DNA of 64,000 bases, from the sequence record PZ452582.1. The stretch is one strand, 5' to 3'. Shown one piece after another: positions 6,407 through 59,017 of the stretch. The DNA comes from a phage. Each line of letters opens with the position of its first letter. Position 1 is the first letter of the stretch. Under the pieces are notes generated by a model that was given only the letters and a program-made list of their open reading frames with translations, was not told where the DNA came from and made no database searches. A program made the position numbers and the translations under genes.

Positions 6407-7375
<969 letters not shown>

Positions 7376-9008: not shown

Positions 9009-9334
9009 TGACAGACACACAGCTTTTCGAATATCTCTATTTTTCGCCAAAAACTATTAAAAATAAATTGGTAAATCATTTTGAAATTTTGGCAAATAAC
9101 AACATTTTAAGCGAATTTTATCCCAAGCAATACAAATTACAAAAAGGCGTATTCAAAGGATGCAGAGTTTTGTGCACTGCTCCTAACGCGCAGTTAATGA
9201 ATAAAATTCCATATTTTACCATGGAATTTATTGATGGACCTTTTAAAGGACTAATCACCCAAAGTTTAATGGCATATGATTCTGAGCCATTTTTAATTAA
9301 AGAACAATCTTGGATAAATTTATTTTCTAATTGA
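9008..9334 (+). CDS. hypothetical protein (108 aa)
   Basis: ATG overlaps upstream stop (TAATG); track ORF started earlier at a non-ATG codon. Confidence 0.5.
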
Positions 9335-9341
9335 GGTTTAT

Positions 9342-9704
9342 ATGAAAGCATATCAAATTCTTGAAGGCACACATAAAGGTACTATTTATTTTGAAGATGG
9401 TATTCAAGCACGAATTATTGTCTCTAAAACCTTTAAAGAGGACTCTTTTGTAGACCCGGAAATTTTCTACGGTTTGCATGCCCGTGAAATTGAAATTGAA
9501 ACACAACCTACAGTTAAAATTGAAGGTGGTCAACACCTGAACGTTAACGTTCTGCGTCGTGAAACTCTGGAAGATGCAGTTAAGCATCCGGAAAAATATC
9601 CGCAGCTGACCATCCGTGTATCCGGTTATGCAGTTCGCTTTAACTCTCTGACTCCGGAACAGCAGCGCGACGTTATCGCTCGTACCTTTACTGAGAGTTT
9701 GTAA
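9342..9704 (+). CDS. autonomous glycyl-radical cofactor, GrcA/YfiD-like (T4 Y06I-like)
   Basis: C-terminal 63 aa match recalled E. coli GrcA incl. RVSGYAVRF glycyl-radical motif; SD gagg. Confidence 0.85.
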
Positions 9705-13691: not shown

Positions 13692-13699
13692 TATAAATA
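13692..13699 (+). promoter_or_regulatory. T4-type late promoter core TATAAATA
   Basis: Exact TATAAATA 26 nt upstream of ATG 13725. Confidence 0.55.
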
Positions 13700-13724
13700 G
13701 GTTTATCTAACTAAAGGGGTATAT

Positions 13725-13937
13725 ATGCTACAATTAACTGAAAAGCAACTTCGCAATCTTACTGTGCTTCAATTAGATGAAATTCGTAGGGAAGTTGGAA
13801 ATGTTATTTCAGCTTTGCGTCGAGAAGTATCACTCAACCAATCTCCGGCAGACTATACTAGATTGCGAAATTTTGAAAAATACCTTGATAAAGTTAAGGC
13901 CGTGCATCGGCATAAAGTAAATACAGGACAAAAATGA
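13725..13937 (+). CDS. hypothetical protein (70 aa)
   Basis: SD aaagggg; late promoter upstream. Confidence 0.55.
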
Positions 13938-13949
13938 TAGGAGGCCTTT

Positions 13950-14243
13950 ATGGCCTTAAAAGCAACGGCACTATTTGCCATGCTAGGATTGTCATTTGTT
14001 TTATCTCCATCGATTGAAGCGAATGTCGATCCTCATTTTGATAAATTTATGGAATCTGGTATTAGGCACGTTTATATGCTTTTTGAAAATAAAAGCGTAG
14101 AATCGTCTGAACAATTCTATAGTTTTATGAGAACGACCTATAAAAATGACCCGTGCTCTTCTGATTTTGAATGTATAGAACGAGGCGCGGAGATGGCACA
14201 ATCATACGCTAGAATTATGAACATTAAATTGGAGACTGAATGA
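13950..14243 (+). CDS. rI: lysis inhibition regulator rI
   Basis: 97 aa with N-terminal signal-anchor; matches recalled T4 RI length and context next to tk. Confidence 0.85.
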   Translation: MALKATALFAMLGLSFVLSPSIEANVDPHFDKFMESGIRHVYMLFENKSVESSEQFYSFMRTTYKNDPCSSDFECIERGAEMAQSYARIMNIKLETE

Positions 14244-15637: not shown

Positions 15638-16183
15638 ATGATGAGTGAGGCGAAACGATTAGTATTAGAAGTTAGTTCACTTTTTGGTGAATTGGCTATA
15701 GAAAAAGTAAATAATATGTATCGTTTGACACAAGAAGACGATATGCTATATTTTACGCCTAACGAAATTGTTCGTTTAACCCAAATTGAAAATTCTTATA
15801 CTGATAAAATTGTAAGCATTAATGATGAGCATAAAATTCATTTCTATTCTTTATGCCCAGGATTTAATATTGAAAGCGAGTCAATATGCTTATCAATTAA
15901 TAATTGGGATAATTTTATAACTAAGATTAAATATTTTTATTATTCTAATGAAAGAAAACATAGTTTAAAATGGTTTAAAAATTGCAATGCTATTATTACT
16001 AACGCTTGCAATCAGAATGATGAAACTGTTTTAAACGTATCAAAATGTTATGAAGATGGAGATGTCTTAACTATTCGTCAAATTGATGATTTTCGATCGC
16101 ATATTGTCACATTTACCAAAGACGAAGCTATTGCACTAAAGACTTATCTTGATTCTGTTATTCCAACTATGATTTCAAAGTGA
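15638..16183 (+). CDS. hypothetical protein (181 aa), paralog of 16190-16711
   Basis: Shared motifs GFNIE(S/D)E and C-terminal (A/E)(L/M)(K/I)(T/K)YL(D/T)(S/T)V(I/T)P(T/S)M. Confidence 0.6.
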   Translation: MMSEAKRLVLEVSSLFGELAIEKVNNMYRLTQEDDMLYFTPNEIVRLTQIENSYTDKIVSINDEHKIHFYSLCPGFNIESESICLSINNWDNFITKIKYFYYSNERKHSLKWFKNCNAIITNACNQNDETVLNVSKCYEDGDVLTIRQIDDFRSHIVTFTKDEAIALKTYLDSVIPTMISK

Positions 16184-17175: not shown

Positions 17176-18185
17176 TGAAAACAGTAATGAAAAGCTATTT
17201 TGGTAGTCATCTTTATGGAACTTCTACTCCAGAATCTGATGTAGATTTTAAAGAAATCTTTGTTCCTCCTGCTCGCGATATTCTTATCGGAAATGTTAAA
17301 GAGCATATGAGCAAAAACACTAACAATACATCATCTAAAAACACTAAAGATGATATTGACCATGAACTATACAGTCTTAAATATTTCTTTAAATTAGCAG
17401 CAGATGGTGAAACTGTAGCATTGGATATGCTTCACACTCCACCTGAACTAGTGGTTAAATCTGATTTGCCTGATGTGTGGAAGTTTATTCAAGACAACCG
17501 TTCTCGTTTTTATACGACTAACATGAAATCCTATTTAGGATATGTCCGCAAGCAAGCTTCTAAATACGGTGTCAAGGGTTCTCGTTTGGCTGCATTACGT
17601 GATGTATTGAAAGTAGTTAATCAAATCCCCGAGCAATGGGTTGATTACCAAGAAGACGGTTCCATTAAGCAGCGTCGCACTAAAGTTGAAGATATTAAGC
17701 ATCGTCTTCCAGAAAACGAATTCTGTGAATGGGTGTTCCATAATCATGAGAAAACAGGCCCACAAACGTTCTACACTGTGTTGGGTCGTAAATATCAGAC
17801 AACGCTTTCTCTTATTGAGCTTAAGCAGTCACTGAACAAATTAGATGCTGAATATGGTGAACGTGCTCGTAAGGCCGAAGCCAATGAAGGTATTGACTGG
17901 AAAGCTCTGAGTCATGCTTGCCGTGGTGGACTCCAACTATTGGAAATTTACAAAACTGGTGACTTGGTTTATCCACTCAAAGATGCTCCATTTATTCTCG
18001 ACGTGAAGTTGGGTAAACATCCATTTAAAACGGTTCAAGAGTTTTTGGAAGATGTGGTCGATCAAGTAGAAGCAGCATCTACTGAAGCTTCTAAGAACGG
18101 TATGCAGCAAAAAGTAGACATGGGTTTCTGGGATGACTTCCTTGAGAAGGTCTATCTTGAAAACCACCGAAGTTATTATAAATGA
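17172..18185 (+). CDS. nucleotidyltransferase-fold protein (Pol-beta superfamily-like), 337 aa
   Basis: N-terminal GSHLYGTSTPESDVDF matches the G-S-x(n)-[DE]-h-[DE] NTase signature. Confidence 0.6.
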   Translation: MMKTVMKSYFGSHLYGTSTPESDVDFKEIFVPPARDILIGNVKEHMSKNTNNTSSKNTKDDIDHELYSLKYFFKLAADGETVALDMLHTPPELVVKSDLPDVWKFIQDNRSRFYTTNMKSYLGYVRKQASKYGVKGSRLAALRDVLKVVNQIPEQWVDYQEDGSIKQRRTKVEDIKHRLPENEFCEWVFHNHEKTGPQTFYTVLGRKYQTTLSLIELKQSLNKLDAEYGERARKAEANEGIDWKALSHACRGGLQLLEIYKTGDLVYPLKDAPFILDVKLGKHPFKTVQEFLEDVVDQVEAASTEASKNGMQQKVDMGFWDDFLEKVYLENHRSYYK

Positions 18186-26786: not shown

Positions 26787-27260
26787 ATGTTATTGACTGG
26801 CAAATTATACAAAGAAGAAAAACAGAAATTTTATGATGCACAAAATGGTAAATGCTTAATTTGCCAACGAGAACTAAATCCTGACGTTCAAGCTAATCAC
26901 CTCGACCATGACCATGAATTAAATGGACCAAAAGCAGGAAAGGTACGTGGATTGCTTTGTAATCTCTGCAATGCCGCAGAAGGTCAAATGAAGCATAAAT
27001 TTAATCGTTCTGGCTTAAAGGGACAGGGTGTTGATTATCTTGAATGGTTAGAAAATTTACTTACTTATTTAAAATCCGATTACACCCAAAATAATATTCA
27101 CCCTAACTTTGTTGGAGATAAATCAAAGGAATTTTCTCGTTTAGGAAAAGAGGAAATGATGGCTGAGATGCTTCAAAGAGGATTTGAATATAATGAATCT
27201 GACACTAAAACACAATTAATAGCTTCATTTAAGAAGCAGCTTAGAAAGAGTTTAAAATGA
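26787..27260 (+). CDS. 49: endonuclease VII (Holliday junction resolvase)
   Basis: 157 aa; zinc-binding CLICQ...CNLC; matches recalled T4 gp49. Confidence 0.95.
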   Translation: MLLTGKLYKEEKQKFYDAQNGKCLICQRELNPDVQANHLDHDHELNGPKAGKVRGLLCNLCNAAEGQMKHKFNRSGLKGQGVDYLEWLENLLTYLKSDYTQNNIHPNFVGDKSKEFSRLGKEEMMAEMLQRGFEYNESDTKTQLIASFKKQLRKSLK

Positions 27261-52528: not shown

Positions 52529-52822
52529 ATGAAAAAATTTATCTTTGCTGCAATTTTTGCTTTAGCTTCTTGTGCTGCTCAGCCTGCTATGGCAGGTTAT
52601 GATAAAGATTTGTGTGAATGGTCTATGACTGCGGATCAGACTGAAGTTGAAACTCAAATTGAAGCGGATATTATGAATATCGTTGAGCGCGATCGTCCTG
52701 AAATGAAAGCTGAAGTGCAAAAACAGCTTAAGTCTGGTGGTGTAATGCAGTATAATTATGTTCTGTATTGCGATAAAAACTTTAATAACAAAAATATCGT
52801 AACCGAAATCACAGGTGAATAA
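52529..52822 (+). CDS. sp: spackle-like periplasmic protein (T4 sp / 61.3)
   Basis: 97 aa with signal peptide MKKFIFAAIFALASCAAQPAMA; matches T4 Sp size and position. Confidence 0.7.
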   Translation: MKKFIFAAIFALASCAAQPAMAGYDKDLCEWSMTADQTEVETQIEADIMNIVERDRPEMKAEVQKQLKSGGVMQYNYVLYCDKNFNNKNIVTEITGE

Positions 52823-53456
52823 TATGATTTATTATATGCACAAAAATCCACCGTTTAAATACGGTAAATTTCCTGATGCACAATGTTATAATATAACGCC
52901 TGATGAAAATAACCGTGGATATCTTATTGGCACAATTTTTGTAATTGTTAAAGATAACGAAATCGTTGCCTGGGCAGATTTTAAAGGTACAACACATGAT
53001 GTTAATCCGGTGCCTTTCACATATTACAATATAATGGATTTGGCATATGATTATAATTGGTTTAATCATGACACGTTGGCTCATATTGAAGGTGTAGGAT
53101 TTGACATCTCTTATTCTAGCTACTCATTGTGTCCTATGAGTCGGGCTCATAAAGAACCTGAATATTTTTCATTTAGGAAACGTGTAAACTTTAAACGCAA
53201 CACAGAGTATGTCGGTGGAATATTTGTTAAAGATAATCGAATTATTCGTATTAATTATCCTTTGAGCGTTAGTCAAAAAGATATTGATGTTGATTTAGAT
53301 TTCACTGAAAATAATATTAATCATATTGCTTCTGTGTATTTTGGTATCGATCACAAAATTGTAATATGTGGATATGAATTACCGTTTGAAGAACAGCCTA
53401 AAGTAAATGTTTCTATTGATGACCAAATTTTTAATGCTTTTATGAATAAAGGTTAA
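52815..53456 (+). CDS. T4 61.2-like protein (213 aa)
   Basis: Position and size match T4 61.2 (reported anti-DarT factor AdfA family, from memory). Confidence 0.5.
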   Translation: MNNMIYYMHKNPPFKYGKFPDAQCYNITPDENNRGYLIGTIFVIVKDNEIVAWADFKGTTHDVNPVPFTYYNIMDLAYDYNWFNHDTLAHIEGVGFDISYSSYSLCPMSRAHKEPEYFSFRKRVNFKRNTEYVGGIFVKDNRIIRINYPLSVSQKDIDVDLDFTENNINHIASVYFGIDHKIVICGYELPFEEQPKVNVSIDDQIFNAFMNKG

Positions 53457-53460
53457 TATG
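53409..53460 (+). repeat. direct repeat copy 1 (gene 3' end plus next start), repeated at 53767-53818
   Basis: tctattgatgaccaaatttttaatgcttttatgaata(a/g)aggttaatatg. Confidence 0.8.
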
Positions 53461-53814
53461 TATAGTTCTGAATTTTCATATTTAAAAATGGAAAAAATTT
53501 CATACGATTTTATAGATGAAAAGGTTTATTACAGTTTCCATGAACCACGTTTTAATAGTGAGGTTGGGTTTATTGTAGTAAAAGACAATTTTATTTTAAA
53601 AATATATTCAGCATTAAAGGATTTTCATTACGAAAATATTAACCTAAAATTTAATAAAGAAAACGTTCGTAATTGCGCAGTAACAATTACGGGAAATAAA
53701 GGTACATGTGTTATGCTATCTGATGAAATTAATGATTTGCTAAATGATGCAGAAAATATTACTGCACCATCTATTGATGACCAAATTTTTAATGCTTTTA
53801 TGAATAGAGGTTAA
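53458..53814 (+). CDS. T4 61.1-like protein (118 aa)
   Basis: C-terminal SIDDQIFNAFMNRG duplicates the tail of the upstream gene. Confidence 0.5.
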   Translation: MYSSEFSYLKMEKISYDFIDEKVYYSFHEPRFNSEVGFIVVKDNFILKIYSALKDFHYENINLKFNKENVRNCAVTITGNKGTCVMLSDEINDLLNDAENITAPSIDDQIFNAFMNRG

Positions 53815-53983: not shown

Positions 53984-55012
53984 ATGTCATCAATACCTTG
54001 GATTGATAATGAGTTTGCATACCGTGCATTAGCTCATTTACCTAAATTCACACAAGTAAATAATAGTTCAACTTTTAAATTACGGTTTAGATGCCCTGTT
54101 TGTGGAGATTCAAAAACCGACCAAAATAAAGCCCGTGGATGGTATTATGGTGATAATAATGAAGGAAATATTCATTGTTATAACTGTAACTATCATGCAC
54201 CAATCGGAATATATTTAAAGGAGTTTGAACCTGATTTATATCGTGAGTATATCTTTGAAATAAGAAAAGAAAAAGGTAAAAGTCGTCCAGTAGAAAAACC
54301 TAAAGAACTTCCTAAACAACTTGAGAAGAAAATAATTAAATCTCTTCCGTCATGTGTTAGATTAGATAAACTGGCGGAAGACCATCCAATTATAAAATAT
54401 GTAAAAGCTCGTTGTATTCCAAAGGATAAATGGAAATATCTTTGGTTTACAACCGAATGGCCTAAATTAGTTAATAGCATAGCACCGGGAACATATAAAA
54501 AGGAAATACCTGAGCCTCGTCTTGTTATTCCAATTTATAATGCTAATGGAAAAGCTGAGTCTTTTCAAGGACGTGCATTAAAGAAAGATGCTCCCCAAAA
54601 ATATATCACCATCAAAGCTTATCCTGAAGCAACAAAAATCTATGGAGTCGAACGAGTTAAAGATGGTGATGTATATGTTCTAGAAGGACCTATAGATTCA
54701 CTTTTTATTGAAAATGGTATAGCTATTACGGGTGGTCAATTAGACCTAGAAGTTGTTCCATTTAAAGATAGACGTGTGTGGGTTTTAGATAATGAACCTC
54801 GTCATCCTGACACTATTAAGCGAATGACTAAATTAGTTGATGCAGGAGAAAGGGTTATGTTTTGGGATAAATCTCCCTGGAAATCAAAAGATGTTAATGA
54901 TATGATTAGAAAGGAAGGTGCAACCCCTGAACAAATTATGGAATATATGAAAAATAATATTGCACAGGGGTTGATGGCTAAAATGCGGCTATCTAAATAT
55001 GCCAAGATTTAA
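53984..55012 (+). CDS. 61: DNA primase gp61
   Basis: 342 aa; N-terminal zinc finger CPVCGDS...CYNC; Toprim-like core. Confidence 0.95.
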   Translation: MSSIPWIDNEFAYRALAHLPKFTQVNNSSTFKLRFRCPVCGDSKTDQNKARGWYYGDNNEGNIHCYNCNYHAPIGIYLKEFEPDLYREYIFEIRKEKGKSRPVEKPKELPKQLEKKIIKSLPSCVRLDKLAEDHPIIKYVKARCIPKDKWKYLWFTTEWPKLVNSIAPGTYKKEIPEPRLVIPIYNANGKAESFQGRALKKDAPQKYITIKAYPEATKIYGVERVKDGDVYVLEGPIDSLFIENGIAITGGQLDLEVVPFKDRRVWVLDNEPRHPDTIKRMTKLVDAGERVMFWDKSPWKSKDVNDMIRKEGATPEQIMEYMKNNIAQGLMAKMRLSKYAKI

Positions 55013-55209
55013 ATTAACCCAACTAAAGCAAATGCTAGATCTACGAATGTATCAAGAGTAACCACTGGAATATTAATACCATGTGCAATTGCAATAGGTG
55101 ATAGAATAAAGTTCCAGAGTAAAATTCCTACCATAGCAGAAATAGTAAAAGCTATACGTTTTTTATTACCTTTTATGGCATTAACAAGTGCCATTAATTT
55201 TTGTACCAT
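55009..55209 (-). CDS. small membrane protein (66 aa) on the opposite strand
   Basis: Minus-strand ATG preceded by AAGGAGGA; hydrophobic helices; convergent with gene 61. Confidence 0.5.
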   Translation of the reverse strand: MVQKLMALVNAIKGNKKRIAFTISAMVGILLWNFILSPIAIAHGINIPVVTLDTFVDLAFALVGLI

Positions 55210-55254
55210 ATGTCCTCCTTTAAATTAATATTTATCACAAATTTCATAAATTTG

Positions 55255-55283
55255 TTTACTTTCTCAGCTTGTTATGGTATTAT
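55255..55283 (+). promoter_or_regulatory. early promoter (TTTACT-17-TATTAT)
   Basis: GTTTAC motif upstream of the 55309 ORF / dam operon. Confidence 0.6.
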
Positions 55284-55308
55284 AAAATAAATTGCTGAGG
55301 ATGATATA

Positions 55309-56648
<1,340 letters not shown>

Positions 56649-57643: not shown

Positions 57644-57889
57644 ATGGCTAGTACTCGCGGTTATGTTAATATTAAAACATTTGAGCAGAAATTAGATGGA
57701 AATAAGAAAATTGAAGGAAAGGAAATTTCTGTAGCTTTCCCTCTTTATTCTGACGTTCACAAAATTTCTGGTGCTCATTACCAGACGTTCCCTTCAGAAA
57801 AAGCAGCATATTCTACAGTATATGAAGAAAATCAACGTACTGAATGGATTGCTGCAAATGAAGATTTGTGGAAAGTAACTGGTGAATAA
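57644..57889 (+). CDS. soc: small outer capsid protein Soc
   Basis: 81 aa, matches recalled T4 Soc; SD aaggag. Confidence 0.9.
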   Translation: MASTRGYVNIKTFEQKLDGNKKIEGKEISVAFPLYSDVHKISGAHYQTFPSEKAAYSTVYEENQRTEWIAANEDLWKVTGE

Positions 57890-58523: not shown

Positions 58524-59017
58524 GGAAAATTATGGAAGCAATTTTGTTTGAAATGTATATTAGCAGTAATAGCATGTCGTTTGCTAAAGATGTTCCAATT
58601 ACTGTAGCCGTAGTGATTGATAAGGGTTATTGTAACCCTATGTATCTCGTAGAAAATTTCGTTTCAATGCCAGTTCCAGAAGATGTTGAAATAAAACTTA
58701 AAAAGATCGGAATTATTGAAACTGTGCCAAATAGTCCGTTTAGAGCAATTGAAGCATTTACTAAATCCGAATACATTAATGTTAGCGCAGAACAATATAA
58801 TGGTAATCCTTTATCTTTTTATTCGTACGATTCAGTATATGACTGGAAAATAAATGAAGGAAATAAATTTATAATTGCGAGTGAAGATGCTTTATCATAC
58901 TTTATTTATTATGTATGGAATAATTTAAATCCAAAATTGCTAAAAATTCATGAATTTGACGATGCTCCTACTATTGTTTTAGGTAAAACAAATGAAAGTT
59001 CTGAAGAAAATGCTTGA
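58520..59017 (+). CDS. hypothetical protein (165 aa), at the T4 mrh position
   Basis: Size and position only. Confidence 0.4.

Follow-up and report, generated by a model that had tools for sequence, protein, structure and literature searches.

Does the spacer downstream of the primase gene of a T4-like phage hold a gene on the opposite strand and, if so, what does its product do? We addressed this in a 64,000-nucleotide stretch of phage DNA (sequence record PZ452582.1, hereafter the window), for which an earlier note, made from the letters alone, had proposed a small membrane protein encoded on the minus strand and convergent with the primase gene. The window belongs to a Tequatrovirus, a close T4 relative with 90-99% nucleotide identity to hundreds of Tequatrovirus genomes, and the two genes concerned lie as follows.

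55009-55209, minus strand: coding sequence of the 66-amino-acid small membrane protein, taken from the list of open reading frames (ORFs), with an ATG start, a match to PHROG 2024 and an orthologue in RB69ORF029w.
53984-55012, plus strand: gene 61, DNA primase (PHROG 47 DNA primase, E=3.7e-106; T4 annotation), convergent with the 66-amino-acid ORF.

Judged by its sequence, the 66-codon frame is a genuine, strongly conserved gene of a small membrane protein. We consider it probable that this is a vertically inherited late gene for a bitopic inner-membrane protein that acts by membrane-helix contacts. The gene is not new: public annotation has carried it since the RB69 genome (RB69ORF029w) and in PHROG 2024, as a hypothetical or a putative membrane protein, and because relatives already have such an annotation we do not present it as a discovery. 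The frame and its ATG were present as the earlier note described, and so was the overlap of its 3' end with the gene 61 stop, which amounts to 4 nt, the palindrome TTAA at 55009-55012 carrying both stop codons. Gene 61 (53984-55012) is followed on the plus strand by an ORF of 186 amino acids (55309-55869), dam (55869-56648) and gene 56. The 66-amino-acid protein is 100% identical to the copy in Escherichia phage FriedrichZschokke.

Conservation gave evidence that the frame is a gene. The protein matched PHROG 2024, which carries no assigned function, with E=1.4e-31 and 109 bits (residues 2-66 against profile positions 1-65 of 65), and it agrees with the PHROG 2024/RB69ORF029w family in its position convergent with gene 61, its length (62-74 amino acids in the family) and its W-N...P...G...P motif, with no differences. 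In 13 loci, drawn from about ten T-even-type genera and 44-73% identical in nucleotides, the same frame was open. Orthologues convergent with gene 61, on the strand opposite to it, were found in RB69 (RB69ORF029w, Mosigvirus), Gaprivervirus VR25, SP18 and TH22, Dhakavirus JS98, Marfavirus, Potts1-type Klebsiella phages, Mosugukvirus PM2, Gelderlandvirus CGG4-1, Kanagawavirus (Q7622, Kosakonia 305) and the Slopek-like Klebsiella phage Roth01. The window protein is 50-56% identical to the RB69 and Gaprivervirus orthologues. The ratio of synonymous (pS) to nonsynonymous (pN) differences peaked in the annotated frame in all ten pairs compared (Fisher P from 6e-2 down to 2e-16), for example in JS98 and Marfa (pS 0.80 vs pN 0.13, P=2e-16) and in the window and RB69 (pS 0.72 vs pN 0.31, P=4e-7). 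The ratio of nonsynonymous to synonymous substitution rates (dN/dS) was 0.15-0.39 between genera and 0.15-0.63 within genera. Indels seen in other family members (P0025, P0077) keep the frame. An open frame across these genera together with purifying selection specific to it bears out the proposal that this is a real gene.

The family falls into three subfamilies with a mutual identity of only 18-28%: subfamily A (T4, RB69, Gaprivervirus copy a), subfamily B (Gaprivervirus copy b, JS98, and Klebsiella, Enterobacter and Salmonella phages) and subfamily C (Slopek-like phages). Six residues (W32, N33, P38, G44, P48 and G64) were invariant in all three. A Tequatrovirus-type protein (at least 80% identity) was present in 503 phage records, and a Tequatrovirus-type gp61 (at least 95%) in 502, and the gene has therefore been retained almost universally in Tequatrovirus. 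It is inherited vertically in T-even-type enterobacterial phages (Tevenvirinae genera and the Marfa- and Slopek-like Klebsiella phages). No counterpart was found at the equivalent position in Serratia 92A1, Aeromonas Biquartavirus, Krischvirus, Acinetobacter Lazarusvirus or Klebsiella Roth41. VR25 carries two tandem copies, subfamily A then B, apparently in one late operon (1495-1692 and 1701-1901 of locus L005), and in SP18 the second tandem copy is partly deleted. In Krischvirus KFS-EC the gap after gene 61 is filled by an unannotated ORF of 187 amino acids with an HNH-like motif, HIDGNPENN (1744-2307 of locus L017, plus strand).

Within the window the frame also stood out from other minus-strand ORFs. 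Its codon-usage score (+0.33 bit per codon) was the highest among the 87 minus-strand ORFs of at least 50 amino acids, and it alone among these combined an ATG and a Shine-Dalgarno sequence with a positive codon score. The same combination, with a positive coding score, was found in no other minus-strand ORF of at least 25 amino acids lying between plus-strand genes. With the ATAAATA sites described below, these tests upheld the statement of the earlier note that no other minus-strand gene in the 64 kb is credible. A chance ORF in an intergenic spacer would be suggested by its 66 codons, the missing annotation in the curated T4 reference and the lack of a functional annotation anywhere. By a back-of-envelope calculation from the base composition of the window, however, a 65-codon open frame is expected at about 0.007 per lineage, yet the frame is open in 13 loci, and frame-specific selection, the best minus-strand codon score and a conserved Shine-Dalgarno sequence and promoter argue in the same direction. 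On these sequence measures the chance-ORF reading appears effectively refuted, and we regard its probability as negligible.

When the gene is expressed is suggested by two elements directly upstream, both claimed by the earlier note and both recovered.

55213-55220, minus strand: Shine-Dalgarno sequence AAGGAGGA, read from the sequence, with a gap of 4 nt between GGAGG and the ATG.
55229-55236, minus strand: variant T4-type late promoter GATAAATA (consensus TATAAATA, -13 to -6), with 7 of 8 consensus matches.

The minus strand upstream of the ORF reads TGTGATAAATATTAATTTAAAGGAGGACAT and then ATG, so that GATAAATA lies 19 nt before the ATG, with ATAAATA at 55229-55235 preceded by a G. GGAG or GGAGG was found upstream in all 13 loci, and ATAAATA 13-21 nt before the ATG in 10 of 12, though the flanks have diverged; the exceptions are VR25b (the downstream tandem copy) and CGG4-1, which has ATTAAATA. 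The base at -13 is G in Tequatrovirus and PM2, A in RB69 and JS98, C in Gaprivervirus and the consensus T in Marfa, Q7622 and Kosakonia 305, and in these last three genera or loci the full TATAAATA is present. The late promoter of T4, TATAAATA, covers 8 bp from -13 to -6; it is perfect in 32 of 50 listed sites, and A stands at -13 in nine of the 50, with variants functioning in vitro and in vivo (PMC2988020). Among T4 relatives the T at -13 is poorly conserved (PMC1524935). With seven of eight matches, a conserved heptamer and accepted variants at -13, GATAAATA has the make-up of a T4-type late promoter.

The heptamer is not a common word in this DNA. ATAAATA occurred 12 times in the window compared to 43.7 +/- 7.6 times in dinucleotide-preserving shuffles, a 3.6-fold depletion, and among its five minus-strand copies only that at 55229-55235 is followed by a Shine-Dalgarno sequence, a start codon and an ORF of at least 20 amino acids. 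The other four (1905-1911, 6452-6458, 9383-9389 and 58903-58909) have no Shine-Dalgarno sequence with an ORF downstream and could be antisense late promoters; that at 9383-9389 precedes a GTG ORF (9118-9372, minus strand) with a mildly positive codon score. On the plus strand, the rule of ATAAATA followed by a Shine-Dalgarno sequence and an ATG picked 6881-7375 (164 amino acids), 13725-13937, 26787-27260 (157 amino acids) and 57644-57889. We take the first to be T4 lysozyme e (from its size and twin late promoters), the third to be gene 49 (from its size) and the last to be soc, names that come from sizes, knowledge of T4 and the annotation of relatives and not from searches. The genes e, 49 and soc are known late units. 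The remaining unit served as a positive control for the rule, since the full TATAAATA precedes a 70-amino-acid ORF (13725-13937) directly upstream of the antiholin gene rI (13950-14243; whole unit 13693-14243, plus strand). The 66-amino-acid gene resembles these late units of the early region (e, the ORF upstream of rI, 49 and soc) in having (T)ATAAATA 13-30 nt before the ATG with a Shine-Dalgarno sequence between them and in being surrounded by early and middle genes. It differs in lying on the opposite strand, whereas those units share the strand of the early genes, and in having G instead of T at -13.

From these signals the gene is very probably transcribed late. We infer a transcription start near 55221-55223, which would give a leader of about 12-14 nt with only the Shine-Dalgarno sequence in it and would correspond to about 17,720-17,726 (plus strand) in T4. 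In RB69 (AY303349, about 15998-16039) the AATAAATA box of the small ORF is overlapped, on the other strand, by a MotA-type middle promoter predicted for gene 56 in the literature (Pm:16038, minus strand). A full-text literature search found no paper on the 66-amino-acid ORF or its expression. A dRNA-seq study of T4 (bioRxiv 10.1101/2024.04.04.588121) reports 150 start sites of the phage, of which 22 are antisense.

The earlier note had described hydrophobic helices in the plural, and here only part of the description stood: one transmembrane helix was predicted with confidence, and in place of a second spanning helix there are an amphipathic N-terminal helix and a short C-terminal one. An AlphaFold2 model built from a 41-sequence alignment placed helices at residues 2-12, 16-42 and 52-63, with a mean predicted local distance difference test score (pLDDT) of 75. 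The Kyte-Doolittle 19-residue maximum was 2.0 at residues 23-41, and the summed Hessa insertion energy was +0.4 kcal/mol for residues 19-37 and +6.5 kcal/mol for the C-terminal 19-mer. Five Lys/Arg (K4, K13, K16, K17 and R18) and no Asp/Glu precede the helix, while no Lys/Arg and two Asp/Glu follow it, and the C-terminal 24 residues of the 66 end in FALVGLI. One hydrophobic segment of spanning length combined with positive-inside charges is the pattern predicted for a bitopic inner-membrane protein. A transmembrane segment at 21-41 was also predicted for RB69ORF029w (PMC1524935 supplement). The protein is accordingly modelled as a single-pass inner-membrane protein with its N-terminus predicted inside and its C-terminus outside, a helix at about residues 19-42 and a short acidic tail in the periplasm or at the interface.

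The N-terminal cytoplasmic part varies among the subfamilies, and the invariant residues sit in the membrane helix and the tail. A polar Asn lies mid-membrane, with an additional Asp in subfamily B, and this pattern therefore suggests a function through packing of helices within the membrane. MgrB, SafA and AcrZ are small single-pass membrane regulators of bacteria. By analogy, the phage protein is like them in size, in its predicted N-in/C-out helix, in the conserved polar residues of that helix and in its short periplasmic tail; it differs in being phage-encoded and has no sequence or fold similarity to them.

Searches for a function returned the family itself. Pfam, NCBIfam and PADLOC gave no match for the 66-amino-acid protein. 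An exhaustive HMMER search of 1.84 billion representative proteins found family members and three long repeat proteins; inspection of the latter sequences showed spurious matches through repeated LLWNF- or SH3-like motifs, and they were rejected. In two profile searches of 5.8 billion proteins every match was a T4-like phage protein of 56-74 amino acids, named hypothetical save for obvious mislabels, and the matches on long contigs came from contigs of about 160-175 kb, the size of T4-like genomes. Foldseek with the AlphaFold2 model found only the protein's own family among viral structures (BFVD) and nothing with E below 7 in the PDB. An Rfam scan of 54700-55500 gave chance-level matches only. 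A search for paralogues in the window found nothing significant, and the family profile run against all plus-strand ORFs of the window, rI (13950-14243) included and imm and sp not separately located, reached at best E=0.06 with a spurious short ORF.

How such a protein might work can be set out as a sequence of steps. After the onset of replication, host RNA polymerase with gp55, gp33 and the gp45 clamp would initiate at GATAAATA (55229-55236, minus strand), making an mRNA whose leader of about 12-14 nt would hold just the strong Shine-Dalgarno sequence. The protein would insert into the inner membrane with its basic N-terminus (amphipathic helix 2-12) in the cytoplasm, one transmembrane helix at about 19-42 and an acidic tail of about 24 residues (helix 52-63) at the periplasmic face. 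The invariant W32, N33, P38, G44 and P48, in or just after the helix, could serve helix-helix packing, through which the protein may associate with itself or with a larger membrane protein of the phage or the host. Its target might be an envelope event at the end of infection, e.g., lysis timing or superinfection and envelope integrity; such a role in the envelope or in lysis is a guess made because of the late timing. The transcript would run antisense into the primase mRNA, and in Tequatrovirus the 3' untranslated region (UTR) of gene 61, antisense to nearly all of the ORF, may help confine expression to late times.

Several observations weigh against parts of this picture. The G at -13 departs from the late consensus, and the 4-nt spacing between the Shine-Dalgarno sequence and the ATG in the window is short (6 nt in T4). 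Nolan et al. list no RB69 late promoter at the site of the small ORF. In the evolved T4-like strain T4_ev240 (LR597657) the A-run of codons 15-17 (window about 55160-55166) is 1 nt shorter and the ORF is frameshifted. Either the gene may be dispensable under laboratory conditions, or the missing nucleotide may be a homopolymer sequencing error. No homology links the protein to T, RI, Imm or Sp, the window (where imm and sp were not separately located) gave no paralogue of it, and its tie to lysis or the envelope is drawn solely from timing and location. Having weighed these, we still hold the late bitopic membrane protein with helix contacts to be the probable answer.

A more specific proposal is that the protein is dedicated to lysis timing, as a holin, an antiholin or otherwise, and it would follow the one database label that names a function of this kind, the word 'Holin' in UniRef. 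Like phage holins it is small, membrane-embedded and apparently late, and of the four plus-strand late-promoter units in the early region two have a link to lysis, namely e and the unit of the ORF upstream of rI, which presumably also carries rI. Unlike holins, however, it lacks a charged hydrophilic C-terminal domain, its tail ending ...FALVGLI with no Lys or Arg, and no holin family matched in Pfam, PHROGs or NCBIfam. T4 already has a complete, genetically defined set of lysis genes (t, rI, rIII, e and those of the spanins). The label itself comes from a single automatic record (A0A482MZV5, the OE5505 orthologue) among hundreds that read 'hypothetical protein', and we rejected it, as no feature supports it. 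A dedicated lysis-timing protein is therefore doubtful in our judgement.

The convergent layout, in which the earlier note saw a possible antisense regulation as well, raises the question whether the RNA, and not the protein, is the product of interest. One further element bears on this.

55175-55204, plus strand: terminator-like hairpin (55175-55194) and T-run for gene 61 transcripts, with an 8-bp stem and the tail TAATTTTTGT, inside codons 2-12 of the ORF.

The hairpin has a fold energy of -8.9 kcal/mol (z = -2.0) and is annotated as a terminator in phage fPS-65. A gene 61 mRNA ending at 55175-55204 would be complementary to nearly the whole 66-amino-acid ORF. In the other direction, no terminator-like site was found on the minus strand between the ORF and 53691-53668, about 1.3 kb into the 61/61.1/61.2 region, and since the ORF and gene 61 leave no space between them for a terminator, a late transcript would run antisense to gene 61 and beyond. 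If RNA were the main product, this late antisense transcript would silence the primase mRNA (by duplex formation and RNase III, or by head-on interference) and the ORF would be incidental. In keeping with this, the stop codons overlap, the minus strand has no terminator-like site until 53691-53668, 12 of 13 loci have the ORF and gene 61 meeting in a tight convergent junction, and T4 sets a precedent in transcribing both strands of some sites at different times (PMC2988020). Purifying selection specific to the frame and residues invariant across subfamilies of 18-28% identity are, however, unexpected for an incidental ORF, the strong Shine-Dalgarno sequence is conserved, and in the one exceptional locus (L020) a gene of 124 amino acids stands between the ORF and the primase gene, so the target there would be a different one. 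We consider an RNA as the main product quite unlikely; an antisense effect may add to that of the protein and cannot be the sole function.

The hairpin raised a further possibility, that of a type I toxin-like hydrophobic peptide silenced by the antisense 3' UTR of gene 61. A small hydrophobic protein whose mRNA would be almost fully complementary to that 3' UTR, up to the hairpin at 55175-55194, would fit such an arrangement. A terminator for gene 61 inside the ORF, when sought across genera, was found only in Tequatrovirus loci, whereas the protein is far more widely distributed, and this confinement weakens the case for a conserved antisense design. A type I toxin-antitoxin system has a dedicated antisense RNA conserved with the toxin ORF; here the sole candidate is the gene 61 3' UTR, with no dedicated antisense promoter. 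No toxin family matched, and the gene is a late gene of a lytic phage and not an addiction module. A toxin of this kind seems very improbable. Antisense effects probably follow from the layout instead and may sharpen the restriction of expression to late times, but we do not take them to be what the locus is conserved for, and a regulatory effect of the overlap on gene 61 itself is a possibility that the arrangement of the sequence allows.

A combined and bolder version would make the protein a late envelope factor of the inner membrane (in lysis timing, lysis inhibition or late protection against superinfection) and would have its terminator-less transcript help to switch off the primase mRNA or supply a late R-loop near oriA; this we think unlikely. 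If an envelope role or a role of the transcript were true, a phage life cycle that is among the best studied would gain a new participant. The origin oriA lies outside regions of transcriptional divergence and is more active late in infection (PMC3016281). The opposite-strand late promoter (about 55232) makes a local point of divergence that in T4 (17.7 kb) is about 1 kb from oriA (16,763) and in the window about 1.5 kb from it (gene 56 start at about 56700), although the link to oriA is speculative.

In T4 itself the gene lies at 17738..17938 (plus strand) of NC_000866, intact with its promoter and Shine-Dalgarno sequence and with three amino-acid differences, but NC_000866 leaves the 309 bp that separate dam from gene 61 without a feature, and only raw-read assemblies give the exact T4 protein sequence. 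Because it is absent from the T4 reference annotation, the gene cannot be seen by annotation-based transcriptomics, proteomics or gene-by-gene knock-down screens of T4. Shotgun proteomics, too, would have difficulty in detecting the protein, since a theoretical tryptic digest gives one convenient peptide (LMALVNAIK) and a hydrophobic peptide of 48 residues. Elsewhere the product is called 'hypothetical protein' in hundreds of records and 'putative membrane protein' in JB75; the names 'DNA packaging ATPase' and 'dCTP pyrophosphatase' on family members are plain mislabels and were set aside. Annotating and knocking out the T4 gene would be simple, as its overlap with gene 61 is confined to the stop codon. 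Beyond this gap in the T4 annotation the finding is an ordinary one, another small phage membrane protein.

The neighbourhood gave some further observations, the first of them on the other side of the intergenic region.

55255-55283, plus strand: early-promoter-like site TTTACT-17-TATTAT with an upstream TG, for the 186-amino-acid ORF, dam and gene 56.

At the equivalent site the annotation of fPS-65 has an early promoter and that of JB75 a promoter. Since the site in the window diverges from the late promoter, 55210-55308 forms a divergent control region. The 186-amino-acid ORF (55309-55869, plus strand) lies directly upstream of dam, and its stop overlaps the dam start (TAATG). It gave weak matches to restriction endonucleases (PADLOC REase_II, E=8.5e-5; Pfam DpnII, E=0.004, below the cut-off), and a D...E-x-K-like motif can be made out by eye (FDIVIS...IIEIK). 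The ORF occurs in about 155 Tequatrovirus records, T2 included, always as 'hypothetical protein'; T4 has lost it, with about 17 C-terminal codons remaining. Such matches raise the idea that its product could be the nuclease partner of the 'orphan' Dam methylase. On the far side of gene 61, the adjacent ORFs at 52815-53456 (plus strand, 213 amino acids) and 53458-53814 (plus strand, 118 amino acids) have a common terminal motif, ...SIDDQIFNAFMN(K/R)G, which suggests that they may be tandem 61.2-like paralogues or the outcome of module exchange.

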